Of a stretch of DNA of 64,000 nt, positions 10,033 to 57,823 are shown piece after piece (positions within the stretch are counted from its first letter, which is position 1; each line of letters begins with the position of its first letter). The position numbers and the translations under genes were made by a program. The notes under the pieces are model-generated. The model was not told where the DNA came from. It made no database searches and saw only the letters and a list, made by a program, of their open reading frames with translations. Origin of the DNA: Vampirovibrio sp. (lineage in GTDB: Bacteria > Cyanobacteriota > Vampirovibrionia > Vampirovibrionales > Vampirovibrionaceae); assembly GCA_019634025.1 (NCBI GenBank), contig JAHQWC010000154.1, positions 1,309 to 65,308 on the forward strand. Direction: 5' to 3'.

Positions 10033-10033
10033 C

Positions 10034-10888
10034 TTACACAAACTCAGGTAGTACTGACTCATTATCTTTAGAGTCTGTTGAGGAGGAGTCCGGCGAACGG
10101 GTCTCTTCATCCAGAGGCTTGTGAATTCCCCGTTTGGATGTTTCTACAAAGGTCACCAACTCTTCAACGGCAGGATCCGGGTCAATTTCGGTGCGAATGG
10201 TTTCAATGGCCTGGCTTTGGTTCATGCCAGAAAACCACAGAAGTTGATAAGCTTTTTTCAGTCGGTTTCGGGTATCCAATCCATATCCCCGCCGCTTCAA
10301 ACCTACACGGTTTAAGCCCACGATGACGGCTTGAGGCCGTCCATCGGTCATGGCAAACGGAGGAATATCTTGCCGGGTCCCGCTGAATCCGGCAACCATG
10401 GCCAATTTACCGATTCTAACGAACTGGTGAACACTACAGGTGCCACTGATAAAGGCAGCATCACCCACTTCCACATGGCCCCCCAGTTGAACGGCATTGG
10501 CCAAAATCACATCGTCTCCCAACGTACAGTTATGGGCGATGTGGCTGTAAGCCATAATCATACAGCCGCTGCCGATTTTGGTTTCATTCCCTTCGCCGGT
10601 AGCTCGGTTAATGGTGACACACTCGCGGATAATGCTATTGTCGCCCACCGTTACATAAGAAGCTTCATGTCCAAATTTAAAATCCTGGGGAGTACCGCCA
10701 ATAACAGCACCGGAAGCTACCTTACAGCCTTTGCCCAGTCGTGTGTATTCTTTAATCACAGCATGACTGTCCAACTCCGTATGGTCCCCAATTACACAGT
10801 GAGGTCCTACGATTGCATAGGGTCCAATGACAACATTTGTGCCCACTTCGGCAGTCGGATCAATCACAGCAGTTGGATGGATGGACAT
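10034..10888 (-). CDS. lpxA: Acyl-ACP--UDP-N-acetylglucosamine O-acyltransferase
   Basis: MSIHPTAVIDPTAEVGTNVVIGPYAIVGPH… hexapeptide repeats typical of LpxA. Carries a ~25-aa acidic/Ser-rich C-terminal tail. Confidence 0.85.
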   Translation of the reverse strand: MSIHPTAVIDPTAEVGTNVVIGPYAIVGPHCVIGDHTELDSHAVIKEYTRLGKGCKVASGAVIGGTPQDFKFGHEASYVTVGDNSIIRECVTINRATGEGNETKIGSGCMIMAYSHIAHNCTLGDDVILANAVQLGGHVEVGDAAFISGTCSVHQFVRIGKLAMVAGFSGTRQDIPPFAMTDGRPQAVIVGLNRVGLKRRGYGLDTRNRLKKAYQLLWFSGMNQSQAIETIRTEIDPDPAVEELVTFVETSKRGIHKPLDEETRSPDSSSTDSKDNESVLPEFV

Positions 10889-10924
10889 GAAACAGTTGCT
10901 CCTTAAGCGTTGGCGGTTATTCCG

Positions 10925-11434
10925 CTATTCCACTCTGTCCACCAGTGAGAACATCAGTTCCCCTTCCAGTACGGGCTCACCGTCGACAAAGGCCTTGCAG
11001 TCTGCCTTGCCAATAGGGAGTCGGAGTTTTGTTAGGACCATCTCCATCTCCAATCGATCTCCGGGTACGACCATCCGGCGAAACCGGACTTTGTCAATGC
11101 CGGCAAAGACAGCCAACTTTCCCTTGGCTTCCGGTAAGTGAGCAATTAAGATACCGCCCAATTGGGCTAAGGCTTCTACCTGGAGCACACCAGGCATGAG
11201 CGGCTGGCCGGGAAAATGCCCTTGGAAGAAGGGCTCGTTCATCGTAACGTTTTTGTAGCCTTTGATTTGCTTGCGGTAAGCGTGCTCGGTGACCCGGTCT
11301 ACCAGTAAGAATGGAGGCCGGTGGGGGATATAGGTCATGATTTCTTCAACGCTAAGCGTTGGCATTAAGGTACCTGTTTCCGGCACCTGAGAGGTTTGGG
11401 TGGAGGGAGGATCCATGGTTTGTACCATTCTCAT
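10925..11434 (-). CDS. fabZ: 3-hydroxyacyl-ACP dehydratase FabZ
   Basis: [13 protein letters not shown] and [13 protein letters not shown] hot-dog motifs. The true start may be the internal Met at 11365 ([12 protein letters not shown]…). Confidence 0.85.
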
Positions 11435-11539
11435 TGAACTCCAGAATCAAGGGGGCGGCAGATAAAGACTTACAGGGAAACTTCTATGGTTTTAACATAT
11501 CCGCTCACTAAAATATAGTATGGTATCGAATGCTGTTTA

Positions 11540-12385
11540 TTAATTAATTTGAACAGCCGACAGCAGTTTTTTTGCAAAGCCTGTGTGACTCGCATGGCCA
11601 GCGTTAAAAGCAAAAATATGTGCCTTTATGTGAAGGGGGTTCAGGCCTGTCAGCATCAAATCTCCCCATAAATCTAAAATTTTATGGCGAATGGGCTCAT
11701 CTTCCATTCTTAGGGGCCGGGTGTATCCCCCATCATCCGTCAAACCCAGGGTGTTGTGTTCATCAACGCCTTTGGCAAGTCCCATAGCTTGTAAAGTAGG
11801 CAGTTCACGGACAAACCCAAAAGTTTGGGCTTTGGCAATGTCTTCAACGGTGTCTTTAGCGCTATCCCAACGGATCCAACGTTGTCTAAGATCCGGGTGA
11901 TCAAAATCAACGGCGTAAGTTACCTGTAAGCGGTTCGAGGGTAATGCATATAAAAGGGTCGTGTCGTTATGTACATAATGAACCGGCTGGGCCAGTTCTA
12001 ATTCTGGCTTGGGTTTAATCATGCAATCCGGCAGTCCGGTATTCAGGTGTTTAATCCACTCTATAGCACTCCCGTCTAATAATGGGAGTTCCGGTGCACC
12101 GTTTACAGATACTTTTAAATCCGAGGCCTCGGCCATGGCGCAAGCAGATAGAAAATGCTCCACAATAGCCAAAAATTTGCCGGATGGGTGACCCAGAGTA
12201 ACTCCCCTCTCGGTGTTTACCACGGTTTCTAATCGAGCAGGAATGGGGAGTTCTCCATCAAGGTAAAATACAATGCCATGGCCTATTGGTGCTGCTTCAA
12301 TCTCCACAGTGACAGGCAGCCCAGTGATCAAGCCTTTGCCACTGACAGTGGTCTTTTTCCCTGAGGGCGCCTCGGTCGTTTCCAA
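11540..12385 (-). CDS. lpxC: UDP-3-O-acyl-N-acetylglucosamine deacetylase
   Basis: LpxC-like sequence (…VEHFLSA…HASHTGFAKKLL), ~280 aa. Positioned between lpxD and fabZ. Confidence 0.75.
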   Translation of the reverse strand: METTEAPSGKKTTVSGKGLITGLPVTVEIEAAPIGHGIVFYLDGELPIPARLETVVNTERGVTLGHPSGKFLAIVEHFLSACAMAEASDLKVSVNGAPELPLLDGSAIEWIKHLNTGLPDCMIKPKPELELAQPVHYVHNDTTLLYALPSNRLQVTYAVDFDHPDLRQRWIRWDSAKDTVEDIAKAQTFGFVRELPTLQAMGLAKGVDEHNTLGLTDDGGYTRPLRMEDEPIRHKILDLWGDLMLTGLNPLHIKAHIFAFNAGHASHTGFAKKLLSAVQIN

Positions 12386-12388
12386 AAC

Positions 12389-13522
12389 CTAGACCTCCAC
12401 TGGCTCGTTTGGGGTGCCCGTATTCTGCTGGGCTGTTTCCAATTCATTCACCCGTTTTTTTAAGGCGATCATATCCTTGTGCATATCTTTCAACTTGTTG
12501 ACGTACCCTAGCGTCTGAAACACCTCCCGATGAGGCTTTGCCGGGGCGCCAACAATAATTGATTTTGGATCAATATCATTCATGACCCCACTTTTGGCCA
12601 TGATGATAACATCATCTCCAATACTAATGTGGTCTTTCAGTCCCACTTGGCCGGCCATCACCACACGATCGCCTACTTTACAACTGCCAGAAATTCCTGC
12701 CTGACCTGCGACCAAACAGTTTTCACCCAAGGTATTGTTGTGGCCGATCATCACCAGGTTATCGATCTTCGTGCCTTTTTTGATTCGAGTAGCGTCTAAA
12801 TTGGCCCGATCAATGGTGGAACAGGCGCCCACTTCCACGTCATCTTCCAGAATCACAGTCCCAATAGAGTTAATCCGAATGATCTCAGAATTTTGTGCTT
12901 CAATTTTCCCGCCAGATTCCCGAGCAGATTCGATGCTACCTTTTTCCGGCGTCACATAGCTAAACCCATCGGCGCCAATGCTGACGTTGTGTTGCAGAAT
13001 CACTCGGTTGCCCAGTATGACCCGTTCACCCACCCGGGCGCCAGAGTGCAGTAAAACATCCTCTCCTAAAACCGCCTCGGCGCCAACGGTCACATGGCTC
13101 ATCAGCACGGCGCCTTTACCGATTTTGGCGCCTTCCCCGACATAGACAAACGCGCCAATCTTAGCAGAGGGGTCCACCTGGGCCGAAGACTCCACAATAG
13201 CACTGGGGTGTACGCCGTCATAAGCATGGACCGGTTTATCAAAAATATTCAGCAGCTGTGCTAACGCCACTCTAGGACGCTCCACCACAATGTATCCGGC
13301 CAACACCCCGTCAGGCACTGTCATCTCTTTAGATACGATGGCGGCTTTTACCGGAGTATGGGGCAGAATTTCCAGTGCCTGAGGCTCAATGGCAAAAGGC
13401 AGATCCTGGGGTGAGGTGGCCATCATCGGGTGAACCAGTTGAGTGACCTCAATGGATCCATCCCCAACGACGGTGCCTTGCACTTGGGTTGCAATGTCCT
13501 GGAGCGAACGTAGTGGGGTCAT
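12389..13522 (-). CDS. lpxD: UDP-3-O-(3-hydroxyacyl)glucosamine N-acyltransferase with a ~40-aa C-terminal coiled-coil-like extension
   Basis: LpxD N-terminal domain and extensive hexapeptide repeats. 377 aa with a C-terminal KLKDMHKDMIALKKRVNELETAQQ tail. Confidence 0.85.
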   Translation of the reverse strand: MTPLRSLQDIATQVQGTVVGDGSIEVTQLVHPMMATSPQDLPFAIEPQALEILPHTPVKAAIVSKEMTVPDGVLAGYIVVERPRVALAQLLNIFDKPVHAYDGVHPSAIVESSAQVDPSAKIGAFVYVGEGAKIGKGAVLMSHVTVGAEAVLGEDVLLHSGARVGERVILGNRVILQHNVSIGADGFSYVTPEKGSIESARESGGKIEAQNSEIIRINSIGTVILEDDVEVGACSTIDRANLDATRIKKGTKIDNLVMIGHNNTLGENCLVAGQAGISGSCKVGDRVVMAGQVGLKDHISIGDDVIIMAKSGVMNDIDPKSIIVGAPAKPHREVFQTLGYVNKLKDMHKDMIALKKRVNELETAQQNTGTPNEPVEV

Positions 13523-37034: not shown

Positions 37035-37372
37035 TAAGAAGGCAGAGCGTCTCATCCGGCGGCTGCTTTCATTGAAATCTAAATCCTCTAAACGTATTTC
37101 GCATAAATCACAAAATTGGAATATAGATAGAATAGATGAGTTGATAAAGATTATGCAAAGGTACTTCCTGCGTTTACCGAATTCTCTTTATAATAAAGCC
37201 GATTAATCGAATATTGTCTGTTGGAATCAAAACCCAGTCCCTTCCATTTAGGCTACTGAATTCGTTAGTTTTTTGTAGTCGGCGGGTAGAGAAGAATCTT
37301 ACGTAAGAGTCTTAAAAGGTCTGATTGGATATAAGTATGTTCTTGATAAGTCAGAAAATAGGAGTTAGCTCA

Positions 37373-39181
37373 ATGAATTCAAGAAAAGTCACACCGTTGC
37401 TGTTAGCAGCAAGTGTGTTCTTAACCGGCGCCACAGGATTTTTTCTGGAAGCCATGACTCCTGCGCAGGCGTTGACCAGTGTGGATGAACTTTCAGATGT
37501 AAACTCAAGTCACTGGGCTTATGAAGCCCTGAGAGATTTGGTTGAAAAGTATGACGTGATTGAAGGCTACCCAGACGCCACCTTCCGTGGTGATCGTGCC
37601 CCCACTCGTTGGGAAATGGCTGCCGCCCTCAATGCCTTGGTAAAGTCCGTTGGTCGTGACTTGGCCCGTTTGGGTGCTGAGAAGGCCAACAAACGTGACT
37701 TGGAAACCTTGGCCCGGTTGCAGCAAGAATTCCGCAACGAGCTCAACGCCTTGAACCAACGCACCACTGCTTTGGAGCAACGCGCTTCAGCCATTGAAGC
37801 CAAAAACGAAGAGCAGGATAACCGCTTGACGCTGTTGGAAAAAACCCAGCTTCACGGTGACTTCAGCTTTGGTGGTATTGCTGACGTTGGCGACAACGGA
37901 ATTGCTACCACAGGAAACGACGGTTTCAGAGACGGATTATCCACCATTGGCCGCTTGCGGTTATCCATGGATATTCCAGTAAAAGAAGCTGACGATGATT
38001 CTTACTTGGGACGTGGAGATGTCTACGCCCGGATGATTGCCGCTTTTGGCCGTAACTCCAACACCAACAACGGGTTGGGTGGTTACACCGGATACTCCCG
38101 GATTGCCGGTGACAGCAGCTTTAACAACGAAGGTATCGGGGTTGTAAACGGTGCCTTTGGTACAGCTGGTGTTGCGACAAACGGCGCGAGCACCCGGTCC
38201 AACTTGTACCTGGAATCGGCCTACTACAAGCAAGAAGTGAACCCAGGTGTTCCGATTTTGACCGACTGGTTCGGCATGACGGATTGGGATATTACGGGTG
38301 ACGCCTACGCTGGTGTCGTGCCGTGGCGGTTCTTGTTCGACAAGAGTCCTTACCGTGGTAACGAGTTGACTCAGTTCCAGAACAGCGCCTTTGTGAACAT
38401 TCCTGGCGTTGCTGTGAACCTGAACCAACCCACCTTGGCCTACGTATGGCACATGGGCATGAATGATGAAACCTCTTTGGACTTCACCACTGCCTTTGCC
38501 TCTCCTAACGTGGGTGACGTTTATGATGGCTGGAACCTGACCTACGAAGGCCGGTTAAACTACGATTCATTGTTTGACTTGGCTGGTGCTGGTTCGTTTT
38601 ACGCCGGTGGCTACCACATCTGGTTGAACGGTAACTCTTTGCCAGGATTGGTGACTGCTGTTGGTGGTGCTACCGGCTTTGATCCTTCTGGGAACGGCCT
38701 GAACGTGGTGCAACAAAACAGTTCCAACGCCTTCTACTTAGGTTGGAGTCAGGACTGGTATGAAGGAATCGGAACGACCTTCAACTACCTGCTCTCTAAC
38801 AAAAGTGGTATTGGTATGTTGTATCAATCACTCAATCAAACCAACGGTGTAAGTTCTTCCTTTAACGGGGCAGGAACCGTTGTGAGTGTTCGCCAAGCCC
38901 TCAGCGGCGTGTTGAACATTCCAATGGCCTCTATCGCTCCTGGCTGGAGAGACAGCGACACCTTTGGGATTGGTTACGCCCTGTTTGATTTCCAAGAGAC
39001 TGGTGCTCAGACCAACAACACGGCTGATGCCTGGACTCACGTGATGGAAACCTACTACAAGTACCAGATGACCGAAAGCATCTCGTTGGTGCCTAGTTTA
39101 CAGCTGCACTTGAACCGGCTGGGACTGGACAAAAACGGCATGAGCTACGTGCTTGGTTTCAGAACCAACTACGAATTCTAG
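37373..39181 (+). CDS. Outer-membrane porin with an N-terminal S-layer-homology (SLH) domain and a coiled-coil linker (OprB/SomA-type)
   Basis: Signal peptide, then SLH motif SHWAYEALRDLVEKYDVIEGYPDATFRGDRAPTRWEMAAAL, a coiled coil, a Gly/aromatic-rich beta-barrel region, and a C-terminal NYEF (terminal Phe). Start chosen at MNSRKV with an AGGAG 8 nt upstream. Confidence 0.8.
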   Translation: MNSRKVTPLLLAASVFLTGATGFFLEAMTPAQALTSVDELSDVNSSHWAYEALRDLVEKYDVIEGYPDATFRGDRAPTRWEMAAALNALVKSVGRDLARLGAEKANKRDLETLARLQQEFRNELNALNQRTTALEQRASAIEAKNEEQDNRLTLLEKTQLHGDFSFGGIADVGDNGIATTGNDGFRDGLSTIGRLRLSMDIPVKEADDDSYLGRGDVYARMIAAFGRNSNTNNGLGGYTGYSRIAGDSSFNNEGIGVVNGAFGTAGVATNGASTRSNLYLESAYYKQEVNPGVPILTDWFGMTDWDITGDAYAGVVPWRFLFDKSPYRGNELTQFQNSAFVNIPGVAVNLNQPTLAYVWHMGMNDETSLDFTTAFASPNVGDVYDGWNLTYEGRLNYDSLFDLAGAGSFYAGGYHIWLNGNSLPGLVTAVGGATGFDPSGNGLNVVQQNSSNAFYLGWSQDWYEGIGTTFNYLLSNKSGIGMLYQSLNQTNGVSSSFNGAGTVVSVRQALSGVLNIPMASIAPGWRDSDTFGIGYALFDFQETGAQTNNTADAWTHVMETYYKYQMTESISLVPSLQLHLNRLGLDKNGMSYVLGFRTNYEF

Positions 39182-41211: not shown

Positions 41212-41781
41212 ATGGTTTTAGCAGACTTAAAAGAGTTTACACACGCAATGGGTTCTTGGGCTATGGGAATGGTCGGGTTGGGTTACTCACACCAAAACCA
41301 GGCCCGCTCGGTAACAAACCGAAAAAAGGCCGGACAACTTATTCAATCCGTGTTGGAAGAGCGGATTACACCTTCCATGGCCCTTAGTCAGTGGCCTTAC
41401 TTTTATAACGGAAACTATTTGCACGACGAGACATTGAACGCCGCTTATCAGGCATTGTGGCACTTTGAGTCCGACGAGGATCATCAACAAGACGAACTGT
41501 ATTATATGGATATTCAACTGGAACTCTTAAAACAGGTGGCCAGTTACCTCTGTAGAGGAAAAGACCTACCGGGCCATATCTTGGCAGCTTACCCAAATAA
41601 GGGAAATATTATATTTTACGGCGAAAAACCTTTTGCTCCCTTGCCCCAAGAATACCTCCGGCAGTGCTTAGGTCAATGGCGAAAGACCATCCAAGGATTT
41701 CAAAACGGCTTGAACTTACAGATTTCTGTCTTAAAAGAGAGCGGCTTGTGGGGTGTGCCTAACAAAAATCCCCGCCAGTAA
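41212..41781 (+). CDS. Hypothetical protein (189 aa)
   Basis: Intact ORF with no recognisable motif. Confidence 0.35.
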   Translation: MVLADLKEFTHAMGSWAMGMVGLGYSHQNQARSVTNRKKAGQLIQSVLEERITPSMALSQWPYFYNGNYLHDETLNAAYQALWHFESDEDHQQDELYYMDIQLELLKQVASYLCRGKDLPGHILAAYPNKGNIIFYGEKPFAPLPQEYLRQCLGQWRKTIQGFQNGLNLQISVLKESGLWGVPNKNPRQ

Positions 41782-41824
41782 AAACCTGACAGGGATTCTT
41801 GAAGTTTTTGAGGAATATTAATTC

Positions 41825-42223
41825 CTAGTGGTGGTCTGCGTGGTGATCGTCGCCGTGGGCGTCGTGAGCATCAGCAGCGTGATGATCATCACCGTGGCCA
41901 ATGGCGTCATGAGCAGCATCAGAAACATCTTCAGCAGCGCCATGGGCGGCGTCAACAGCACCGTGAGCGGCGTCTTTTGTGGCGTCTACAGCGCCTTCCA
42001 TAGCTTCACCAGCACCGTGTGCTGCATCTTCCATAGCTTCACCGGCTCCATGAGCGGCATCTTCCATGGCATCACCCACACCGGCAGCAGCACCTTCAAC
42101 ATGCTCCATCATGCCACCTTCTTCGGCAACAGGCTCAGCCTGTTTTTTGGCACAACCGGCCAAGGTCAAGGTAGAGGCAACAGCCGCCACAAGGGCCAAG
42201 GTGGTAAATAATTTCACGTTCAT
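41825..42223 (-). CDS. Histidine-rich repetitive lipoprotein (putative periplasmic metal-binding protein)
   Basis: Signal peptide with lipobox LTLAGC. Tandem DAAHGAGEAMED repeats and a C-terminal HGDDHHAADAHDAHGDDHHADHH tail. Confidence 0.6.
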   Translation of the reverse strand: MNVKLFTTLALVAAVASTLTLAGCAKKQAEPVAEEGGMMEHVEGAAAGVGDAMEDAAHGAGEAMEDAAHGAGEAMEGAVDATKDAAHGAVDAAHGAAEDVSDAAHDAIGHGDDHHAADAHDAHGDDHHADHH

Positions 42224-42497
42224 ATCGACTCCTTAAAATCCTAACTGCAATCAGGGTAACAAACGATGCATCTCGACAATTTTGTCAGGTGAATCATACG
42301 GGAACAAAACACCAACGGCAAGAGATACTGCCAAATCTTTATTTTATAGTTGACTGTATTAAAGACGATGTTGCCGGATGGGTCAAGTAGATTGAGGGTT
42401 CAGCAAACAGACGCCTTTTTTGAATCTAACAGGTAAAATGTAAAGAAGATGTCATGTTCTATATCAGTTAGGGACCATGGAAGGTAGAGGCGTCGGC

Positions 42498-42824
42498 ATG
42501 GATTCAAAAAGCACTTTTTGCGTTGTTATAGTCACCTGCGGGTCTAGCGAAGAAGCAACCCACATCAGTAAAACCATTGTGTCGGAAAAATTAGCTGCCT
42601 GCGTAAATGTGTCGGGTCCCATTCAATCGCACTATATTTGGAACGGTGTTTTGCAAGATGATGCGGAGTACATGCTGTTGATCAAAACCCAGCCTAACTG
42701 CCTCCCAGAGCTGGAAAAGCGGGTAAAAGAGTTGCACAGTTATGAGGTTGCCGAGTTTATTGCCCTACCGGTTATCGGCGGCAGCCAAGCTTATCTTTCC
42801 TGGGTAGCTCAATCAGTCGGTTGA
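42498..42824 (+). CDS. cutA: Divalent-cation tolerance protein CutA
   Basis: CutA1 family sequence FCVVIVTCGSSEEATHISKTIVSEKLAACVNVSGPIQSHYIWNG…, ~108 aa. Confidence 0.8.
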   Translation: MDSKSTFCVVIVTCGSSEEATHISKTIVSEKLAACVNVSGPIQSHYIWNGVLQDDAEYMLLIKTQPNCLPELEKRVKELHSYEVAEFIALPVIGGSQAYLSWVAQSVG

Positions 42825-42980
42825 TTTTGCTTGCGGATCCCGGACTTTGCCGCCTATAATATGAAAACAAACTTGCGGGGTGGTTTCCTTCATCAGAGAT
42901 TTCTGGAACAGTTTGAACCGGAAATGTTTGCCAAAAAGGTGTCACCGGTACGCATTTAGAACGAGAAAAAGGAATTTGCA

Positions 42981-44039
42981 GTGGGTTTATTCAACTTTGT
43001 GAAGAAAAGCACCAACGATCTCGGCATTGACCTGGGTACGGTGAACACACTGGTTTGTACCGCATCAAAAGGTGTTGTACTTAGGGAACCTTCCGTTGTC
43101 GCTATTGATCACAGCCAGCGCCCACCGCAAGTGATCGAAGTAGGTATTGCTGCCCGGGATATGATTGGCAGAACCCCCGGCAACATTAAAGCAACTCGCC
43201 CGCTACGTGACGGTGTTATTGCCGAATTTGAATGGGCTGAGGTGATGCTGAAACGGTTTATCGAAAAAGTTTCTGGTAACCAAGGCCTTCTTGGTGCACG
43301 GCCAGGCCGAATTGCCATTGGCTTGCCCAGTGGCGTAACTGAAGTTGAACGACGTGCTGTTGGCGATGCTGCCTACGGTTCCGGTGCTCGGATTGTTAGC
43401 TTGATTCCTGAGCCTATGGCTGCCGCCATTGGCGCAGGCATGCCGGTAGAAAAACCGACTGGGTCCATGATCATCGACATCGGTGGTGGGACTACTGAAA
43501 TTGCGGTTTTGAGCTTAAACGGCATTGTCGTCAGCAAAAGCCTGCGGGTGGCTGGTGATGAGTTGAATGAGAATATCCTGGATCACCTTAAGCGGGTCCA
43601 TAACCTGTCAGTGGGTGAGCGTACTGCTGAAGACATTAAAATTAAACTCGGCTCGGCCTATAAAACCGATGAGGAAGAGGAAATGGAAGTCCGGGGACTG
43701 AACCTCCTCAACGGTCTGCCTCACACCATTGTGGTGAGCAGCTCCGAGATCCGTGACTGTATGAACCCCACCCTCATGCGGATTGTGGAAGGGGTCAAAA
43801 TGACCCTGGAAATGACCCCACCGGAACTGGCGGCAGATATCGTCGATCGTGGCATTGTTTTGGCTGGGGGCGGTGCCTTGTTGACAGGATTTGATGAATT
43901 GATTAATAAAGAGGTGGAAGTCCCTGTTCACATCGCCAGCGACCCTCTTTCATGTGTGGTGCTGGGAACTGAAAAATTGCTGAATGACCCCACCTACAAA
44001 AAAATCTTGCACTCCACCGAGTACGATCCTCGCAACTAA
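42981..44039 (+). CDS. mreB: Rod-shape-determining actin homologue MreB
   Basis: LGIDLGTVNTLV phosphate-1 motif and an actin/Hsp70 fold. Uses a GTG start with an AAGGAA RBS. Confidence 0.9.
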   Translation: MGLFNFVKKSTNDLGIDLGTVNTLVCTASKGVVLREPSVVAIDHSQRPPQVIEVGIAARDMIGRTPGNIKATRPLRDGVIAEFEWAEVMLKRFIEKVSGNQGLLGARPGRIAIGLPSGVTEVERRAVGDAAYGSGARIVSLIPEPMAAAIGAGMPVEKPTGSMIIDIGGGTTEIAVLSLNGIVVSKSLRVAGDELNENILDHLKRVHNLSVGERTAEDIKIKLGSAYKTDEEEEMEVRGLNLLNGLPHTIVVSSSEIRDCMNPTLMRIVEGVKMTLEMTPPELAADIVDRGIVLAGGGALLTGFDELINKEVEVPVHIASDPLSCVVLGTEKLLNDPTYKKILHSTEYDPRN

Positions 44040-48735: not shown

Positions 48736-50213
48736 TGATGAGCGAAAAAAGCGGATTCCTATTCACCTCAATTGCCGATATCCAAGCCCGCTTGGCAAAC
48801 GGCAGCCTGACGCCCACAGAAGTTGCCCAATGGGCTATTGATGTGGTGGAGTGTCTGGAACCCTACGTAAAAGCCTGGGTCCGGTTTGATGCCCATCAGC
48901 TCATGGATCATGCAAAAGAAGTTGAAGCCCACCTGAAATTCGGCCAATCCTTGGGTTCTCTTACAGGTATTCCAGTCGGTATCAAAGACATGATGAATAC
49001 TGCAGACTTCCCTACCGAAATGGGCAGCCCGTTGTGGCAAGGCTTTACCCCTGGCAACGACGCCCGGGTGCTCTTTTACCTGAAGCAGGCTGGTGCGTTG
49101 GTTCCGGGTAAAACCGTTACGGCAGAATTTGCCGTCCACACGCTGGATAAAACCCTCAATCCCCATGATCCCACACGTACCCCCGGCACTTCTTCCAGTG
49201 GCTCCGCTGCTGCGGTTGCTGCCGGCATGGTTCCGGTGGCTCTGGGCACTCAAACCGCAGGTTCTATTGTCCGCCCCGCCAGTTTTTGCGGAGTCTATGG
49301 TTGCAAACCTTCCTTTGGGCTCATCCCTCGCACTGGCATGCTCAAAACTACCGATAGCTTGGATACTGTCGGCTTTTTTGTGTCCCACCTGGTAGATATG
49401 GAGCGGGTCTTTGATGTGGTCCGGGTCCACGGCCAAAACTTTCCTCTTAGTCATGCCGCTCTTAGAGATGAAGCTCGTCAAAACAAACCCCCTGGTAAGC
49501 CATGGCGCATTGCATTTGTGAAACCCCATGTCTGGGACGATGCTCACCCCTATGCCCAAGAGGCTATGACGGGCTGGGTCGAAAGCCTGAAAAACATACC
49601 GGATGTCGAGGTGGTGGAGGCTGATTTACCCTCTGAAACTCTTGATTCCCATCGGATCCACGCCACCATCTATAACAAAACCCTGTCCTATTATTTTCAG
49701 GAAGAATTCAAAAAAGCCGAACTGGTGTCTCCGGTCATGAACGATCTCATCACCCAAGGGCAAGCCATCTCGGTAGAAGCTTATCAACAGGCCCTCAAAG
49801 ATCAGGAAGCCATGGCCCAAGTGGTAGATACATGGATCCAGGATTTTGATGCTGTTGTCACTTTAAGTACAGCAGGCGAAGCTCCTCTGCGTGAAGACAC
49901 CGAACGCCCGGATTCGGCTCTCCTCTGGAACATGACCTACCTCCCCGTAATCAGTGCTCCTACGTTTATTGGCCCTACCGGCCTCCCCTTCGGCCTCCAA
50001 CTCGTCGCCCGCCGTTATAATGACTATAAATTGTTCAAAGTCGCAAGCTATTTCAACACCCACGGCCTGTTGCCGGATGGGGTAAATCCAGTTGCCAAAA
50101 TAGTCAAAAATATTGTCGGCTCTGGTCAAGGTGTCATTCCCGCAGAGGCGACCATGGCCGTGTGCAACGCAGGAGCACATACGGATATGGATACCCGTGG
50201 TGGAACCCGTTGA
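48732..50213 (+). CDS. Amidase-signature family enzyme (GatA-like amidase)
   Basis: AS signature [45 protein letters not shown]. Start overlaps the upstream gene's stop by 4 nt. Confidence 0.8.
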
Positions 50214-52099
50214 CAGCATTTGCTATAAACACTCACCATATCTTTACCGAGGCCATCACCCCCGAAGCCCTCGGCTTCCTAAAACAACACGCCAAAACCA
50301 CCCCCAACATCATTTGCTACCTCCCGGCAGACAACCTTCCTGTCCCAAGCCCCAGCAGCCTGCCTCCAAATGTTACCCTTAAATCTTTTAAAGACGAAGA
50401 CCAAGTTTTCGACCCCATTCTTCACGCTTACCAAATCGGTCGAGAAATTGCGGATACCCTTATCGCCGACCTCACCTCCCGGCACCCACAATGTTTCCAG
50501 CTCCCTGGGACTCCATATGATTTTCAACCCCTGTTCACCTTTAACACCCAATTTCACTTTGCCCGCCACCAGTTCAACTTTTGGCTCAACTGCGTTCATC
50601 AAATCACGGCATCTAAGACTCATCAATTTACCTTCCTCAACTTCAGCTATCTGTTTACCCCTTCCTGGAAGGTATTAGCCCAAAGGTTTCCGCAGCTAGA
50701 CCAATCCAACTGTGATTGGCAGCATACAGGCGATTTGCCCAACCGGGTGGGCTTAAAACTTACCGCCTCCCTCACCCGGTTCAAATACCGGCTCAAACGA
50801 CAACTCAAACCCACTCAGAATAGATCTGATAGAACCGGTGGAACACTCTCCTACGTCCGAGCCTCCCATCATTTAGATATGGTGGAGCCTACCCTGGCTA
50901 TTTTGTCAGAATCCCAGCCTGTTACTTTGTTGGACTACCTGCCGTCTAAATTCCATAAAACCCATCCCAACTACCTGACTGGTCGAATTGACCGATACCC
51001 TGGTATTCATCCTACGAACCCACGGCAGTTTCATCCCAGCCATACCATGCTACGCCGGGTCCACCGGCATCAGTTGTCTCTGACCAAAGTGATCCTGAAA
51101 CAAAAAGAGCCGGTTCTCCGCCAACAAGATACGCTCCTCCTCGCTCAGCTGCAAAAACAATTGAAGCAGTTTTTAAGATTGGAATCCATTATCAGTCACC
51201 TTCAGCCCACTATGGTGGTGGCCTGTATGGAAGCCGACGCCTTCAGTCTGATCTTGCAAGAATTGCAAAAAACCACGCCGTTTAAGACCATCAACCACTT
51301 GCATGGAGTGGCCCCATATTTTTACGCCATGGATCTATGCCGGTTTGACGCCTTTATGGTGTGGAACCAACTGACCAAGGAAATCCTCATCAAAGACGGC
51401 TACCGGGATGTCGAAGAAGGTAAACCGGTTTCCATTCAGGTGGTGGGCACCCCGTTTTGGGAAGGTAACGGTGATCTGGATACTGTCAGTGAGGAAACCG
51501 AGATTGTCCAAGACCTTCGCCGGTGGAAAGGCAATGCAAAGTTGATCGTGGCTTATTCTACCGTGTTGGTGACGTATGTGACCCCTAAGCAAAAGCAAGA
51601 TTACTTTGAGACCCTGGGTACTTTCTTATCGGACCATCCCACCGCCAAGATGGTGATTAAAAAACACCCTAATGAGTTCGATTCCCTTGTCCACACCTTT
51701 TACAACAACCTTCCTCAATCTATCAAAGATCGGGTCCGGCTGATGGAAGCCAAAGAACTTCCTCTATACGAATCCTTCCGGGTAGCGGATGTTGCCGTGG
51801 CCATTTGCTCCAGCGTGTTGCAAGAAGCCCTTTACTACCGAGTTCCTGCTGTCTCCTTGGACTACGAAAAAGTCATTGCATTGCTGGGTTATGGGTTTGA
51901 GCAAATTATGGCCGTGGTCACAGATCCGATGGAAGCACCGACTGTCTTAGACCGGGTGCTTAAGAATGGCATTGCTGATGAAGCCTTTGCTGAGGAAACC
52001 CGGCAAAAAGTTTTCCCAAAATTCTTGGATCGTTATCCAAATCGAGTTCGACGGGTACTTTCAATGTTAACTTCTCCACAAGCTTGCCCCACACTGTAG
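50162..52099 (+). CDS. TagF-like CDP-glycerol glycerophosphotransferase / capsule polysaccharide biosynthesis family protein (putative)
   Basis: C-terminal …VIKKHPNE…ADVAVAICSSVLQEALYYRVPAVSL resembles the KxHP…(ITDYSS)-type motif of Glyphos_transf enzymes. The longest ORF overlaps the amidase 3' end by 52 nt. Confidence 0.4.
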   Translation: MQRRSTYGYGYPWWNPLTAFAINTHHIFTEAITPEALGFLKQHAKTTPNIICYLPADNLPVPSPSSLPPNVTLKSFKDEDQVFDPILHAYQIGREIADTLIADLTSRHPQCFQLPGTPYDFQPLFTFNTQFHFARHQFNFWLNCVHQITASKTHQFTFLNFSYLFTPSWKVLAQRFPQLDQSNCDWQHTGDLPNRVGLKLTASLTRFKYRLKRQLKPTQNRSDRTGGTLSYVRASHHLDMVEPTLAILSESQPVTLLDYLPSKFHKTHPNYLTGRIDRYPGIHPTNPRQFHPSHTMLRRVHRHQLSLTKVILKQKEPVLRQQDTLLLAQLQKQLKQFLRLESIISHLQPTMVVACMEADAFSLILQELQKTTPFKTINHLHGVAPYFYAMDLCRFDAFMVWNQLTKEILIKDGYRDVEEGKPVSIQVVGTPFWEGNGDLDTVSEETEIVQDLRRWKGNAKLIVAYSTVLVTYVTPKQKQDYFETLGTFLSDHPTAKMVIKKHPNEFDSLVHTFYNNLPQSIKDRVRLMEAKELPLYESFRVADVAVAICSSVLQEALYYRVPAVSLDYEKVIALLGYGFEQIMAVVTDPMEAPTVLDRVLKNGIADEAFAEETRQKVFPKFLDRYPNRVRRVLSMLTSPQACPTL

Positions 52100-52139
52100 G
52101 TAGGACCTCTTCGGGATTACAAAGAGCCTTCCACCAGGC

Positions 52140-52517
52140 TCAAACCCACAACACCGCGTCCATCTGTGGAAAGGGTGACCACCCGCCAGAGCCCTGTGCA
52201 AACGGCGTCTGCGGTAGTACGGCCTGAGGTGCTGGCACATTGGCAATTCTGGCCCAATTGCTAAATTTACGAGTATCCACCGGCTGCCCGTAGATGTCTG
52301 AGGCGATAAACTGAACGGAATCCCGTCCCTCTCCCAATAGCGAGTTTACGGTGTAAATATCTGGTAGCGAGGCCAACATCGCCTCTGCAGCTTGCTGTTG
52401 TTCTTCCTCGTCAACAACGTAATAGTCAGTACGACCGTCCGCATCCCGATCAGGACTACCGCCCATTGATGCGGTCACTCCTGGGTTGCTATACCCTGCA
52501 TTCATGTGAATCGACAT
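52140..52517 (-). CDS. Small protein carrying only the N-terminal module shared with the neighbouring lysozyme and M23 peptidase (hypothetical)
   Basis: N-terminus MSIHMNAGYSNPGVTASMGGS…AMLASLPDIYT aligns with the N-termini of the products of 52681..53505 and 53683..54558. Preceded by a duplicated upstream element. Confidence 0.5.
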   Translation of the reverse strand: MSIHMNAGYSNPGVTASMGGSPDRDADGRTDYYVVDEEEQQQAAEAMLASLPDIYTVNSLLGEGRDSVQFIASDIYGQPVDTRKFSNWARIANVPAPQAVLPQTPFAQGSGGWSPFPQMDAVLWV

Positions 52518-52527
52518 TATTTTGTTG

Positions 52528-52581
52528 TCCCAACCTGCCTATATCCATGTATATAAAAACAAATAGTTTGTTTTTTGTGCG
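52528..52581 (-). promoter_or_regulatory. Conserved upstream element, copy 1 (putative promoter/leader of 52140..52517)
   Basis: TCCCAACCTGCCTATA-n8-TATAAAAACAAA-n9-TTTTGTGCG. The same blocks with identical spacing recur at 53511..53565. Confidence 0.5.
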
Positions 52582-52680
52582 CATTTGTTGCGTTTTTTTA
52601 CCTGAAGGAGAAGGGAGACAGACGCTTTCAAGCTGAAGCATTCTAGTATCCAGCCAGGTTCAATATAAACGACTCTCTAC

Positions 52681-53505
52681 TTAGCTGGTTAGAGGCTGAT
52701 CAGACCGACTATCCTCTTTCAAAAACCGATTCGCCTCACGTTCTCTGCGTGCGACTAAAACGGGATGAACATTTCCACCCGCCTTATTCCATCGAAGAAA
52801 CTCTCGGGCTGCCCCTGCATAGTCCTTATTGTTTAACTTCTTCAATAACGTACTTTTTCTAAAGCCACCCGTCCCAATGTTATACGAGAGGGATACTAGG
52901 CTATCAAACATATTGGTTGTTACCGGTACTTTTACATGGTGTTTAATTACAGGTTCAATTTTTTCAGCGATCCATCGTTTGAAATCACTTTTTGCTTTGG
53001 CTTGAGTAACGGTTTCCCCTTTACGCACTTTACGCCAACTACCATTTTCATAAATATAATGTAAGCCGTATCCAACAGCATATCCCTTATAGTCCCAATA
53101 TGCCTTACCACGGAAACCTTCTTCTTTCATCAATGCTTCTAATCCAGCTTTAGAGGTTTTTAAATCGTTAATAGGGACTGCATTTTCATCTACATCAATC
53201 ACTAACCCATCGGTTAATCCTGCTAATTGCAACTGGCTATCTGCCTTTTCGCTTTCATCTCCAAGTAAACCCCATAGGGCCAATACAAAGGCTTCTGTAG
53301 GAGAGTTCTCCAAACTGGCCAAATCGGTTAAATCATCTGATTTGCCCTGATTAGCGCTCAGTTCAAACGTATCAACATCGCTCAGCATCGCTGCGGCAAG
53401 TGCTTTGGTAGTTGCTTCGTATACCTCACCAGGCTTAACAACGCTTGTGTTCCTAACACCAGAAGCTGCATTATATGGATTCTGTCCAATAGATGTCATG
53501 ACCAA
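52681..53505 (-). CDS. GH24 (T4/lambda-type) lysozyme with a ~130-aa N-terminal extension
   Basis: C-terminal domain …GFRGKAYWDYKGYAVGYGLHY…TNMFDSLVSLSYNIGTGGFRKSTLLKKLNNKDYAGAAREFLRWNKAGG…VLVARREREANRF is a typical phage-type lysozyme core. No signal peptide. Confidence 0.8.
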   Translation of the reverse strand: MVMTSIGQNPYNAASGVRNTSVVKPGEVYEATTKALAAAMLSDVDTFELSANQGKSDDLTDLASLENSPTEAFVLALWGLLGDESEKADSQLQLAGLTDGLVIDVDENAVPINDLKTSKAGLEALMKEEGFRGKAYWDYKGYAVGYGLHYIYENGSWRKVRKGETVTQAKAKSDFKRWIAEKIEPVIKHHVKVPVTTNMFDSLVSLSYNIGTGGFRKSTLLKKLNNKDYAGAAREFLRWNKAGGNVHPVLVARREREANRFLKEDSRSDQPLTS

Positions 53506-53510
53506 TACAA

Positions 53511-53565
53511 TCCCAACCTACCTATACTTAATAGTATAAAAACAAAAGTTAGGGCTTTTGTGCGG
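53511..53565 (-). promoter_or_regulatory. Conserved upstream element, copy 2 (putative promoter/leader of the lysozyme gene)
   Basis: TCCCAACCTACCTATA-n8-TATAAAAACAAAAG-n7-TTTTGTGCGG. Block spacing is identical to copy 1. Confidence 0.5.
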
Positions 53566-53682
53566 TTAAATTATAAAATGTAACATTTATAAAACAATCT
53601 AACATCAATTACCCATCCCCAGTCTTTATACAACTAGATATTCGTTTTTTAGGATAGGTTGGTAAAAAGGTAGGCTAGGCAG

Positions 53683-54558
53683 ATGGTCGATTTTAATGCC
53701 GGATTCGGCAGACAATCCAATTTTTATTATGGTTCTCAAGGCGGGCTTTACGGGCCTCGTCCCACGCTCATCAGCGATTATGACTTGCTCTTCGGTGGTA
53801 CGCCGTATGGCGAAAACCCCTTGCTGGACGACAGCTATAGTGCAGATTTTATGTATAGCCGTAGTAATGGCGATGATGATGGTGGCAGCAGTTGGTGGGA
53901 CTGGGGCAAATGGATCCTGGGTGGTGCAGCAGCGTTAGTGGGTGCCTCGTTTGCCTTTGGCGATAAAAACCCCGGCTTCCTGGGCAAAATTAGAGATGGC
54001 ATTAAAGGAATTTGGAATAAGTTTTTCGGTTCCGATGATTCAAGTGTTGGCCACCGCGATGAGTATTCATACCCGCCCCAAGAAATAACAGATGCCCAAC
54101 GTAAAACCGCCAAAGAGAACGGAACAGATTCACTCTCATTTACCAGGCCTGTTGCTGGCGGAAGAATAAGCTCCCACCATGGAATGCGAGAGCACCCGAT
54201 AGAAGGAGGGCTAAAAATGCATAACGGGGATGACATCGCCGTAGGAAAAGGCACTCCGGTAAATGTAACCGCCGATGGAATTGTTGTTGATGTTCAAGAC
54301 GAGGATAAAGGCAAATACGGACGGTATATTGATGTCCTTCACTATGACAAAAAAGAAGGAATCTATTATCTAACTCGTTATGCACACCTTGATAAAACAG
54401 ACGTAACGATTGATCAGGAAGTTAAGCAAGGGGATGTTATTGGCAAATCCGGCGATTCGGGTGCAGTAACAGGAGAACACCTCCATTACGAAATCCATAA
54501 AGGGGACGCAGAGGGGGTAGATTTTAAAACCATCGATCCCAAATTAAATGATGCATAG
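53683..54558 (+). CDS. M23/LytM-family metallo-endopeptidase with a ~150-aa N-terminal extension
   Basis: HHGMREHPIEGGLKMHNGDDIA (HxxxD) and GEHLHYEIH (HxH) motifs. N-terminus MVDFNAGFGRQSNFYYGSQGG resembles the N-terminus of 52140..52517. AGGTTGG motif in the leader. Confidence 0.8.
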   Translation: MVDFNAGFGRQSNFYYGSQGGLYGPRPTLISDYDLLFGGTPYGENPLLDDSYSADFMYSRSNGDDDGGSSWWDWGKWILGGAAALVGASFAFGDKNPGFLGKIRDGIKGIWNKFFGSDDSSVGHRDEYSYPPQEITDAQRKTAKENGTDSLSFTRPVAGGRISSHHGMREHPIEGGLKMHNGDDIAVGKGTPVNVTADGIVVDVQDEDKGKYGRYIDVLHYDKKEGIYYLTRYAHLDKTDVTIDQEVKQGDVIGKSGDSGAVTGEHLHYEIHKGDAEGVDFKTIDPKLNDA

Positions 54559-54802
54559 ACTCCCTAGTTATAACAGTTTCTATTTGTAGAGAAGATTCTG
54601 TTAGCCATTTTGTTGCTTTCTTACAAAGGCTAACTACAGTATCAATATGAATTATCCAACGCCTTGTAAGCATCAGCCTAAAAACCATGCCCTAATGTTG
54701 GGACATGGGGCATTTTTCACGTCGTCAAAAACCTTTCGATAAGGGCTTTTCCAACAAATGTCCCAGAAAATGCGTTTTTTAAAACGGGACATTTTGGGGA
54801 AC

Positions 54803-56230: not shown

Positions 56231-57823
56231 TTACTCTTCGTTCTTATGCCACACCAGGCTATACAAGTCATGCCGGCGGTCTCGCAGGTTTTGGACGGTG
56301 CCCATATTTCGGGCGCGGTGCAGGTTTTCCATCCGCAGGTCGGCAAAGGCCACAGTTTCCACGTTTGGGGTGGTGTCGGCGGCAATGCCATCTCTCGAAA
56401 ATGCAAAGTCGCACGGGGTTAAAATGCAGCTCTGGGCATACTGAATATCCATATTGTGGACCCTGGGCAGGTTCCCCACGTTGCCGCTCAGCACCACATA
56501 GCACTGGTTTTCCACGGCTCTGGCTTGGCAGCTGTAGCGTACCCGCAAATAACTTTGGCGCTCATCGGTACAAAACGGCACAAACAACATGGTGGCGCCT
56601 TGATCCACCAAGTGCCGGCTTAATTCCGGAAACTCCGCGTCATAGCATATCAACACCCCAATGGGTCCGCAGTCGGTTTCAATCACATCCAACTTATCCC
56701 CACCTTCAATATTCCACCAGTACCGTTCGTTGGGGGTGGGATGAATCTTGGCCTGCTCATGGATGGTGCCGTCTCGCAGGCACACCATCGAAATATTTTG
56801 AATCGCCGTGGTTTTGTCCTTATGAGGTACCTTGGTGGGATGCGATCCCGCAATAATATTCACGTTGTACTTGATGGCCAACGTGCTAAAAAACGCCTTT
56901 AACCGCTCGGTATAATCCGTTAAATGATCAATGGCCTTTTCCGGGCGTACCGGTTCGTTTTCAATCGAGAGCAATTGCAAGGTAAACAGTTCCGGAAACA
57001 CCACAAAATCTGCCCGGTAATCCGAGACCACATCCACAAAGTAGGTCACAATCTGCTCAAACTCTTCAAAAGATTCGATCCGCCGTTGCTGATACTGCAC
57101 CGTGGCCAGCCGAACGGTATCAGACGATCTGAATCCATACTTTTTGTCGCTGGACGCCTCGGCCTTATTTACCGACGGGTTGTACCACACCATGTGCGAG
57201 GCGTAGGCCAACGATTCCCGGTCACTGGGCAAATAATCTTTTAACACGCCAATGACCTCAAACCCCCGGCGTAGTTGAAAGGCCAATACCGGATCCCGGA
57301 TCTCTTTGTGTTTCACCATCTCCACATAGTTATCTACCGTCTTGGCCTTGGCCAGCCGCTTATGCAGCAACGGCATTCTGCCGCCAAACACAATGCCTTT
57401 CAGCCGGTAATGGCGGCACAGGTTTTTTCGCGCCGTGTATAACCGATCGCCAATGCGGATTCCCCGGTAGTCCGGGTCGACAAACACTTCCATCCCATAC
57501 AAATAATCCCCCTCCGGCTCATGGGTCGATCCATATCCTCCGCCGGTAATTTCCCGCCAGGTGTGGGCGGCAAAGGCTCTTTCTTTGGAGATTCTTATCG
57601 TCGCGCAGTACCCGACCACCTGCCCTTCGTAGGTGGCGACGAACTGACCTTCGGGGTAGTTATTAATTTGCCCCCGCAACACCGATGCCGTGTAAGGAGG
57701 AATGTCCGTATATACCTTGGTAGACAGCGCCTGAATGTCTTTGACGTCAGACGTCTTGGCATTGCGAATGACCAGCTTCGGCTTCTGGGTGTCTTTTTTC
57801 AAAGCTGTTTTTTTCTTTGCCAT
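56231..57823 (-). CDS. Bifunctional GNAT N-acetyltransferase / carbon-nitrogen hydrolase (nitrilase superfamily) fusion protein
   Basis: N-terminal GNAT fold (…QFVATYEGQVVGYCATIRI…), then a CN-hydrolase domain (VVFPELFT…, ICYDAEFPE with catalytic Cys, …ENQCYVV). Confidence 0.7.
   Translation of the reverse strand: MAKKKTALKKDTQKPKLVIRNAKTSDVKDIQALSTKVYTDIPPYTASVLRGQINNYPEGQFVATYEGQVVGYCATIRISKERAFAAHTWREITGGGYGSTHEPEGDYLYGMEVFVDPDYRGIRIGDRLYTARKNLCRHYRLKGIVFGGRMPLLHKRLAKAKTVDNYVEMVKHKEIRDPVLAFQLRRGFEVIGVLKDYLPSDRESLAYASHMVWYNPSVNKAEASSDKKYGFRSSDTVRLATVQYQQRRIESFEEFEQIVTYFVDVVSDYRADFVVFPELFTLQLLSIENEPVRPEKAIDHLTDYTERLKAFFSTLAIKYNVNIIAGSHPTKVPHKDKTTAIQNISMVCLRDGTIHEQAKIHPTPNERYWWNIEGGDKLDVIETDCGPIGVLICYDAEFPELSRHLVDQGATMLFVPFCTDERQSYLRVRYSCQARAVENQCYVVLSGNVGNLPRVHNMDIQYAQSCILTPCDFAFSRDGIAADTTPNVETVAFADLRMENLHRARNMGTVQNLRDRRHDLYSLVWHKNEE

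Follow-up and report, generated by a model that had tools for sequence, protein, structure and literature searches.

Pesticin of Yersinia pestis opens with a translocation domain (residues 1-40) that is a random coil rich in glycine, proline and serine and carries a TonB box; a receptor domain and a killing domain resembling T4 lysozyme follow, the protein has no signal peptide, and it is paired with a periplasmic immunity protein (PMC3390615). Vampirovibrio chlorellavorus, the type species of its genus, has flagella, type IV pili and a type IV secretion system (T4SS) proposed to deliver hydrolases (PMC4451040). Here we describe three neighbouring genes, designated A, B and C, in a 64,000-nucleotide stretch of DNA from a metagenome-assembled genome (MAG) of Vampirovibrio sp. 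(contig JAHQWC010000154.1); this whole stretch, 64 kb long, is referred to below as the window. B encodes a GH24 muramidase, C an M23 metallopeptidase and A a small acidic orphan. The three genes form a unit in that they have in common a promoter-proximal DNA box, confined within the window to these three sites, and an unusual polar composition of their N-terminal leaders, and we read them, tentatively and at somewhat less than even confidence, as a co-regulated, lineage-specific accessory set of wall-cutting enzymes with disordered leaders of a non-Sec kind. No literature specific to these genes was found; what emerged was the comparison with pesticin.

Pesticin is the closest known architecture for B. 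Both have a disordered Gly/Ser-rich N-terminus, an intermediate region and a killing domain of lysozyme fold, and neither has a signal peptide, but B has no TonB-box string of the DTMVV kind at residues 3-7, no sequence similarity to the translocation and receptor domains and no Pim-like periplasmic immunity gene, and its killing domain is of the P22 and not of the pesticin type. With the P22/AcLys-type GH24 endolysins (6ET6, 9KBQ, 2ANV and the endolysin of Acinetobacter phage AP22) residues 112-261 of B share the fold, 45-50% identity, the catalytic Glu and Asp and a strongly cationic character, whereas B differs from them in its 112-residue acidic orphan extension, in an Ala where they usually carry Thr, and in the absence of phage context, holin and signal-arrest-release (SAR) segment. 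C in turn resembles the ShyA/MepM endopeptidases, in that its residues 156-271 align with ShyA and the HxxxD and HxH motifs are intact; unlike them it has neither LysM nor Csd3-type N-terminal domains, and instead carries a 70-residue tail without relatives and a weak hydrophobic segment. Like the peptidoglycan-degrading effectors of type VI secretion systems (T6SS; Tae/Tge with the immunity proteins Tai/Tgi), the locus encodes a glycoside hydrolase next to a peptidase, together with a small adjoining gene, but it has no alignable trafficking domain, no PAAR, VgrG or Hcp in the 64 kb, no export signal on the small gene and no further family members. The locus can be viewed as horizontally acquired wall hydrolases with lineage-specific extensions, which is a known kind of arrangement.

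Results

The upstream element

A and B are each preceded by a 54-nt element that is 72% identical between the two genes without gaps (blastn E 1.2e-5 window-wide). The element ends 10 nt ahead of the Met1 ATG of A and 11 nt ahead of the ATG of B; counted from the last base of the core, the distance is 12 nt in A (CAGGTTGG) and 13 nt in B (TAGGTTGG). In both copies the element contains the box ATAGGYAGGTTGGGA besides a 16-bp palindrome, whose outer arm position differs between the copies on both sides. The 16-mer TATAGGYAGGTTGGGA occurs in the window at the A and B sites only, and the palindrome pattern likewise has two matches in the window, at these same sites, where 0.08 are expected. A partial copy precedes C; it ends 20 nt ahead of the ATG and lies back-to-back with the B element in the divergent intergenic region of 177 bp between B and C.

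Within the window the region upstream of C is the best non-self match of a profile made from the A and B elements, in the right place and orientation, with a window-wide E of 0.52, and the local score between the regions upstream of B and C (13) exceeds what any of the 28 remaining upstream regions reaches (shuffle p 0.006). The box TTTATAY-N6-RTAT has exactly three matches on both strands of the 64 kb (128 kb in all), one per gene and each in gene orientation, where 0.11 are expected; this pattern was defined after the three sequences had been seen, and the profile result is the unbiased one. We infer that the box is a shared promoter or operator. An exact-pattern scan for the element gave 0 matches in metagenome and viral collections, and nhmmer found none in 80 fetched loci.

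Other explanations of the upstream DNA were discarded. A riboswitch or leader RNA was dropped because Rfam gave no match in the window and folding of the three 5' regions revealed no significant structure (z = 0.33, -1.6 and -0.64). AGGTAGGTTGG was rejected as a canonical Shine-Dalgarno sequence, being too distant from the start, whereas other genes of the window use GGAGG-type sites. Judged by eye, the element did not fit a sigma-54, sigma-28, NtcA, Fur or LexA box.

Leader composition and export signals

The fraction of Gly, Asn and Ser at residues 2-21 is 0.50 in A, 0.40 in B and 0.45 in C; the highest value in 44 other proteins of the window is 0.35, and the 99th percentile over all 20-residue segments is 0.40. 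The Gly/Asn/Ser-rich starts that a first-pass annotation of this DNA, made from sequence by a model, had pointed out thus lie above all 44 compared proteins and at or above the 99th percentile of segments. Its statement that none of the three proteins has a classical Sec signal peptide agrees with the hydropathy profiles, which show no N-terminal hydrophobic core in A, B or C and no transmembrane-like stretch anywhere in A or B. The highest 19-residue hydropathy in B is 0.84; B was for this reason rejected as a SAR endolysin, having no weakly hydrophobic N-terminal SAR segment, and it presumably cannot use the Sec, Tat or lipoprotein route. As A, B and C all lack a signal peptide, a non-classical signal for export, release or uptake is best sought in their disordered polar leaders.

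Relation between the three N-termini

The first-pass annotation had also proposed that the three proteins share a homologous N-terminal module, a trafficking module that would define a polymorphic family of effectors, and here the searches spoke against it. In pairwise BLASTP comparisons of A, B and C the N-termini did not align (E 0.28-3). In Smith-Waterman shuffle tests with whole-sequence shuffles and with shuffles within blocks of 10 or 20 residues, the latter keeping the composition gradient, the A-C and B-C N-termini scored like shuffled sequence (p = 0.13-0.92). The A-B pair was marginal (p 0.004-0.04 by length and shuffle type; z ~3), with 22% identity across ~80 collinear residues beginning near residue 1, and it is to this marginal alignment that the AMLAS/AMLSD match belongs. 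Pairwise tblastn of A and B gave E 0.004, but with the whole window translated in six frames as target the E was 0.39 and the match ranked among chance matches. No further copies of A, of the B extension or of the C N-region were found in the window by tblastn against its six-frame translation, and the coding regions of the three genes have no DNA similarity to one another.

Searches of public data gave the same picture. In a word-indexed search of 5.8 billion proteins, A matched only itself, non-self matches to B covered at most 69% of it and mostly ~54%, corresponding to the catalytic half, and matches to C never covered more than 71% of it and almost always 40-56%, corresponding to the C-terminal catalytic part. 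An exhaustive phmmer search of 1.84 billion representatives with residues 1-117 of B returned B itself and one junk repeat protein. The B extension had no relative in JGI metagenome contigs, and the N-regions of A, B and C had none in viral contigs. Pfam gave no match at E <= 10 in A, in residues 1-117 of B or in residues 1-152 of C, bar one 9-bit chance match, and the trafficking and marker domains PAAR, MIX, FIX, LXG, Rhs and VENN were absent from the three N-regions. Since no other public protein carries any of the three N-regions, there is no polymorphic family with alternative C-termini; neither further carriers of the supposed module nor a trafficking domain came to light. By the refuting condition that the first-pass annotation had set itself, its effector reading thus fails: the N-terminal similarity is compositional and does not align for C, with A-B marginal, and A, B and C are not joined by a conserved protein domain.

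The two enzymes

Pfam places Phage_lysozyme (PF00959) at residues 127-257 of B (E 2.1e-34; 119 bits against a cut-off of 22.3) and Peptidase_M23 (PF01551) at residues 178-275 of C (E 4.1e-23; 81.8 bits against a cut-off of 28.7), so the earlier domain calls, i.e. a GH24 lysozyme in B, an M23 peptidase in C and none in A, were right. Residues 112-261 of B match the Acinetobacter prophage muramidase 6ET6 with E 2.5e-33 and 50% identity, and the catalytic domain is modelled by AlphaFold2 (AF2) with a predicted local distance difference test (pLDDT) score >95 and superimposes in Foldseek on 6ET6 and 9KBQ with template-modelling scores of 0.87-0.90. In an alignment of 50 homologues the catalytic Glu127 is kept (E in 49 of the 50), as is Asp136 (D or C in 47 of the 50). 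The position of the active-site Thr (T26 of T4 lysozyme) is occupied in B by Ala141 (codon at 53078-53080), where 46 of the 50 homologues have Thr, two others Ala and two Ser.

Phage records matching the catalytic domain of B numbered 1513, the best at 45% identity, and 0 matched its N-terminal part; the homologues include, at 47% identity, the endolysin encoded on a Mu-like phage contig, and PHROG matches in the gene set were confined to the catalytic domains. The N-terminal extension of B, with 126 residues ahead of the catalytic Glu, is the longest among the 50 aligned homologues. Its residues 1-22 are predicted to be disordered and are G/N/S-rich, and three low-confidence helices follow (AF2 pLDDT 37-70). 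Extension and catalytic domain are complementary in charge (~-14 and +14, respectively).

The best PDB match of C is ShyA 6UE4 (E 4.2e-17; residues 156-271 of C aligned, both zinc motifs included), and its best named matches are ShyA, ShyC and MepM. Residues 75-93 of C, with a Kyte-Doolittle 19-residue mean of 1.23, are the sole transmembrane-like stretch in the three proteins and a possible membrane anchor; its topology is ambiguous because acidic residues flank it on the N-terminal and basic residues on the C-terminal side, which disfavours a simple N-in anchor. In both B and C the reading frame and the active-site motifs are intact, and to judge from their sequences the two enzymes look functional.

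Gene A

The product of A (pI 4.1, net charge -9) belongs to no family in Pfam, NCBIfam, PHROG or PADLOC, and AF2 gave an unusable model for A alone (pLDDT 40). Its codon-usage score is +0.10 per codon in frame versus -0.18 to -0.49 in the other five frames, and it was called by two gene-calling pipelines. With its codon bias, its own copy of the element, a terminator-like hairpin and two independent calls, A has the marks of a gene. No part of a catalytic domain could be recognised in any of its frames. A and the 5' end of B rather probably go back to a common ancestor through an old duplication: common ancestry is likely because of the shared upstream DNA together with the weak collinear protein similarity, and the event would be old because the GC content is 0.54 in A and 0.42 in B. 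Among the roles suggested for the small protein by the first-pass annotation (adaptor, immunity protein or decayed paralogue), it is the decayed paralogue that is best supported, ahead of the other two.

Layout, base composition and chromosomal setting

The three open reading frames (ORFs) reported earlier at 52140..52517, 52681..53505 and 53683..54558 are all present (Table 1). A copy of this locus, 8.35 kb long, is also contained in the assembly of sequencing run SRR12681089 (Logan). The ORF of B spans 52681..53505 (-); both gene callers choose the ATG at 53499, two codons inward (MTSIGQ...). B and C are divergently transcribed, and A lies on the same strand as B, downstream of it. The gene set covers ~2.4 kb and is partly AT-rich: GC falls to 0.385-0.45 across 52.4-54.8 kb, the Gly-rich N-region of C excepted, and the earlier remark that the lysozyme gene is AT-richer than its surroundings is borne out by a GC of 0.424 in B versus 0.491 +/- 0.026 in other genes. 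The best relatives of the catalytic domains are no more than 45-48% identical and are phage endolysins (B) or proteobacterial M23 proteins (C). B and C are unlikely to be housekeeping genes, because they are unique to the lineage, of phage or foreign type and partly AT-rich, and because B has no way into the periplasm.

Table 1. Positions of the genes, protein regions and DNA elements of the A/B/C gene set in the window.
Feature	Position	Strand	Description
Gene A	52140..52517	-	125 aa, acidic orphan; hypothetical protein in the NCBI annotation (PGAP), KTR14_11355 / MBX2861821.1
Gene B	52681..53499	-	272 aa; orphan N-terminal extension and GH24 muramidase; MBX2861822.1 'lysozyme [Vampirovibrio sp.]'
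Gene C	53683..54558	+	291 aa; M23 metallopeptidase with orphan N-terminal region; MBX2861823.1
Upstream element of A	52528..52581	-	54 nt; palindrome TATAT-ACATGG-ATATA (52540-52555), box ATAGGCAGGTTGGGA
Upstream element of B	53511..53564	-	54 nt; palindrome TATAC-TATTAA-GTATA (53523-53538), box ATAGGTAGGTTGGGA
Upstream element of C, partial	53611..53662	+	TTTATAC-AACTAG-ATAT, 13-nt insert, TAGGTTGG
B N-terminal extension	53164..53499	-	aa 1-112; acidic, net ~-14, pI ~4
B catalytic domain	52714..53163	-	P22/AcLys-type GH24 muramidase, cationic: net +14, pI ~10
C N-terminal tail	53683..53892	+	aa 1-70; Gly/Ser/Asp/Tyr-rich, acidic (net -7)
C hydrophobic segment	53905..53961	+	GKWILGGAAALVGASFAFG, aa 75-93; weak, Gly/Ala-rich
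C catalytic domain	54148..54510	+	M23; zinc motifs HxxxD (HNGDD) and HxH (HLHYE) intact
Terminator-like hairpin	52124..52141	-	GAGCCT-GGTGGA-AGGCTC then TTTGTAAT; overlaps the stop codon of A

When the 45 non-overlapping ORFs with 150 aa or more were scanned with Pfam, the window proved to be housekeeping chromosome, with genes for pyruvate:ferredoxin oxidoreductase, a sugar ABC transporter, lpxA/C/D with fabZ, alanyl-tRNA synthetase, a two-component system, an M16 peptidase, an SLH-OprB porin, HemD, MreB, a Crp-family regulator, an amidase, MlaD, a GNAT-nitrilase fusion, MalK and a GHL10 protein. MlaD adjoins the gene set and MreB lies 8 kb off. The window contains no tRNA and no integrase, and PADLOC found no match to a defence system. 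A phage lysis cassette was rejected, there being no holin or spanin near B and no phage genes in the window. The two nearest Vampirovibrionales loci, both from MAGs, which were found through the neighbouring carbon-nitrogen-hydrolase (nitrilase) gene at 73-74% identity, are not syntenic, and A, B, C, MlaD and the amidase are absent from them within 10 kb.

Several other features of the window were recorded. The GNAT-carbon-nitrogen-hydrolase fusion at 56231-57823 (-) is unusually conserved across phyla: 73-74% identical in other Vampirovibrionales, it is still 64-69% identical in Vulcanimicrobiota, purple sulfur bacteria, alphaproteobacteria and a bin labelled Thermococci, which suggests strong constraint or wide horizontal transfer. 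Between the convergent genes C and MlaD a hairpin, CCATGTCC-CAACATTA-GGGCATGG at 54685-54708, with T-runs on both strands, may be a bidirectional terminator. The 645-aa mechanical ORF at 50162-52099 (+) is probably over-extended, as the gene caller gives a 406-aa product. Its coding score is 0.015 in the first 240 codons versus 0.28 in the last 406, and its 5' part combines a strongly negative GC skew (-0.3 to -0.45 at 50.2-51.0 kb) with a Pro/His/Gln-rich translation; the 406-aa product resembles glycosyltransferases only faintly (GT1, E 0.095; BFO_1060 family, E 0.004). The region 41212-42981 is without a Pfam-matching ORF of at least 150 aa; it holds a 189-aa ORF of no family (41212-41781) and a 127-aa ORF from 41828, both with Gly/Ser-rich stretches close to possible starts. 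The SLH-domain OprB-type porin (37325-39181, +) and the lpxD-lpxC-fabZ-lpxA cluster (8605-13522, -) are consistent with a diderm of the cyanobacterial lineage and match the Vampirovibrio label on the NCBI proteins.

Discussion

If A, B and C are a co-regulated accessory set, as we tentatively read them, the locus could work as follows. Since the box is read as a shared promoter or operator, the three separately promoted genes would be switched on together from it. B would cut the glycan strands and C the peptide cross-links of peptidoglycan, and the polar disordered leaders would serve as a non-classical signal for export, release or uptake, recognised by composition rather than sequence. Inside the producer the acidic extension of B (~-14) might mask its cationic catalytic domain (+14). 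A would be a diverged, truncated paralogue of the 5' end of B, comprising promoter and extension, and might function in trans, either as a partner or as an antidote. Such a set would be accessory and serve attack, competition or programmed lysis, not housekeeping growth of the wall. A bolder version makes the leader an unrecognised non-Sec export or import signal, similar to those of type III export or colicin translocation, for two lysins and an acidic partner, with the palindrome as operator, the whole as a new lytic weapon module of non-photosynthetic cyanobacteria and A as a free-standing masking extension; to this version we give a low probability.

A number of observations weigh against the accessory-set reading. 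No export apparatus was found: the check for secretion systems that the first-pass annotation had proposed came back empty, with no T4SS, T6SS, type VII secretion system (T7SS) or contact-dependent inhibition (CDI) genes within the 64 kb, nor any flagellar/type III secretion system (T3SS), phage or recognisable immunity genes. There is also no holin, spanin or small ORF bearing a transmembrane segment at 52.1-54.8 kb. The copy of the element upstream of C is weak, with its window-wide E of 0.52, the pattern of a box common to three genes was defined post hoc, and the element has neither a recognisable sigma-70 -35/-10 pair nor a significant RNA structure. The role of the leaders is drawn from composition alone. 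The difference in GC between A (0.54) and B (0.42) speaks against a recent duplication. The Ala that replaces a near-invariant Thr in B may alter its activity, and if the hydrophobic segment of C is a plain signal-anchor, C could be an ordinary membrane-tethered endopeptidase. Finally, there are no carrier relatives to compare with, and the two nearest Vampirovibrionales loci are non-syntenic.

The last point on C leads to the view that both enzymes are housekeeping or division hydrolases acting on the cell's own wall, with C a membrane-anchored protein like MepM or ShyA, B a remodelling muramidase and the N-termini linkers or regulatory tails. The best named matches of C, the hydrophobic segment preceding its catalytic domain and the surrounding envelope genes of housekeeping kind (adjoining MlaD, MreB 8 kb off, lpxA/C/D) all agree with this, but B has no route to the periplasm and is AT-rich and of endolysin type, the charges flanking the hydrophobic segment of C oppose an N-in/C-out anchor, the identity of the catalytic domains to other proteins does not exceed 48%, and no orthologue with the same N-region exists in any other genome, other Vampirovibrionales included, so we regard this view as unlikely. 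Phage ancestry offers another origin, either as the decaying remnant of a prophage lysis region or as two independent horizontal acquisitions, in which the likeness of A and B was left by a local duplication. The phage-endolysin type of the B catalytic domain, the frequency of M23 domains in phage tail and lysis proteins, the low-GC islet and the orphan A with its weak codon bias would fit. It is nevertheless distinctly improbable, as the window contains no holin, spanin, integrase, tRNA or other phage gene, both enzymes have intact frames and active-site motifs, and C has the box too; moreover, the non-coding element (72%) is better conserved than the adjoining coding sequence (~22% at the protein level), which argues for selection on the element and not for neutral decay.

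The remaining alternatives concern how the enzymes might leave the producer or enter a target. B and its neighbours could be bacteriocins of the pesticin/colicin kind, having a disordered translocation leader, a variable receptor-binding region and a wall-degrading killing domain, which are released without a signal peptide and imported by targets. Pesticin has this very layout with a T4-lysozyme-like killing domain (PMC3390615) and is among the fold matches of the B catalytic domain; B has no signal peptide, orphan and fast-evolving N-regions would suit receptor-binding modules, and loose TonB-box-like strings occur in B (NTSVV, residues 17-21) and A (DYYVV, residues 31-35), although they are too short for any statistic. 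On the other side, residues 3-7 hold no TonB box (DTMVV-like string), Pfam gives no match to pesticin or colicin translocation or receptor domains at E <= 10, and the 112-residue extension of B is short for a translocation and a receptor-binding domain together. Nor is there a periplasmic immunity gene nearby: A, located downstream of B, has neither signal peptide nor transmembrane segment, and the gene set has no other small gene. The chance we allow this explanation is small. T4SS signals are usually C-terminal, whereas B and C end directly after their catalytic domains; this tells against a polymorphic effector family with a homologous trafficking domain, delivered by T6SS, T7SS, CDI or the like and with A as adaptor or immunity protein, even though variable wall-degrading C-termini do stand behind look-alike N-termini without Sec signal and hydrolase delivery has been proposed for the T4SS of the type species (PMC4451040). 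The N-terminal similarity is not significant for C and marginal for A-B, there are no further members, no PAAR, MIX, FIX, LXG or Rhs and no secretion genes in the 64 kb, and such a family is very improbable here. Type III signals show compositional likeness without alignable sequence, and A, B and C might accordingly be substrates of flagellar or type III export, with their unconserved, polar and disordered opening 20-25 residues acting as the signal; the enzymes would then breach the wall to make room for a trans-envelope machine, and A would either be exported with them as a partner or act as a small acidic chaperone. The N-terminal likeness is of this compositional, non-aligning sort, the leaders are Ser/Asn/Gly-rich with few charges, A is small, acidic and adjoins B, and the flagellar genes of V. 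chlorellavorus form a complete set (PMC4451040), but with no flagellar or T3SS gene in the window, no FlgJ rod-binding domain and an internal hydrophobic segment in C, this is more improbable still.

The Vampirovibrionales include the only known predatory relative of the cyanobacteria. The locus described here provides a compact and testable case, in which two intact wall-cutting enzymes, neither with a signal peptide and one without a classical export signal of any kind, go together with a common leader composition and a common box; experiments would best be aimed at this leader composition and at the shared cis-element. If neither a signal function of the leaders nor masking by the extension holds, these are ordinary lineage-specific extensions on horizontally acquired hydrolases. 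If the acidic extension does mask the muramidase, B would represent a natural pro-lysin design, useful for engineered lysins, and if the leaders are a true signal, they would reveal a new route of lysin delivery or uptake and provide a portable tag.

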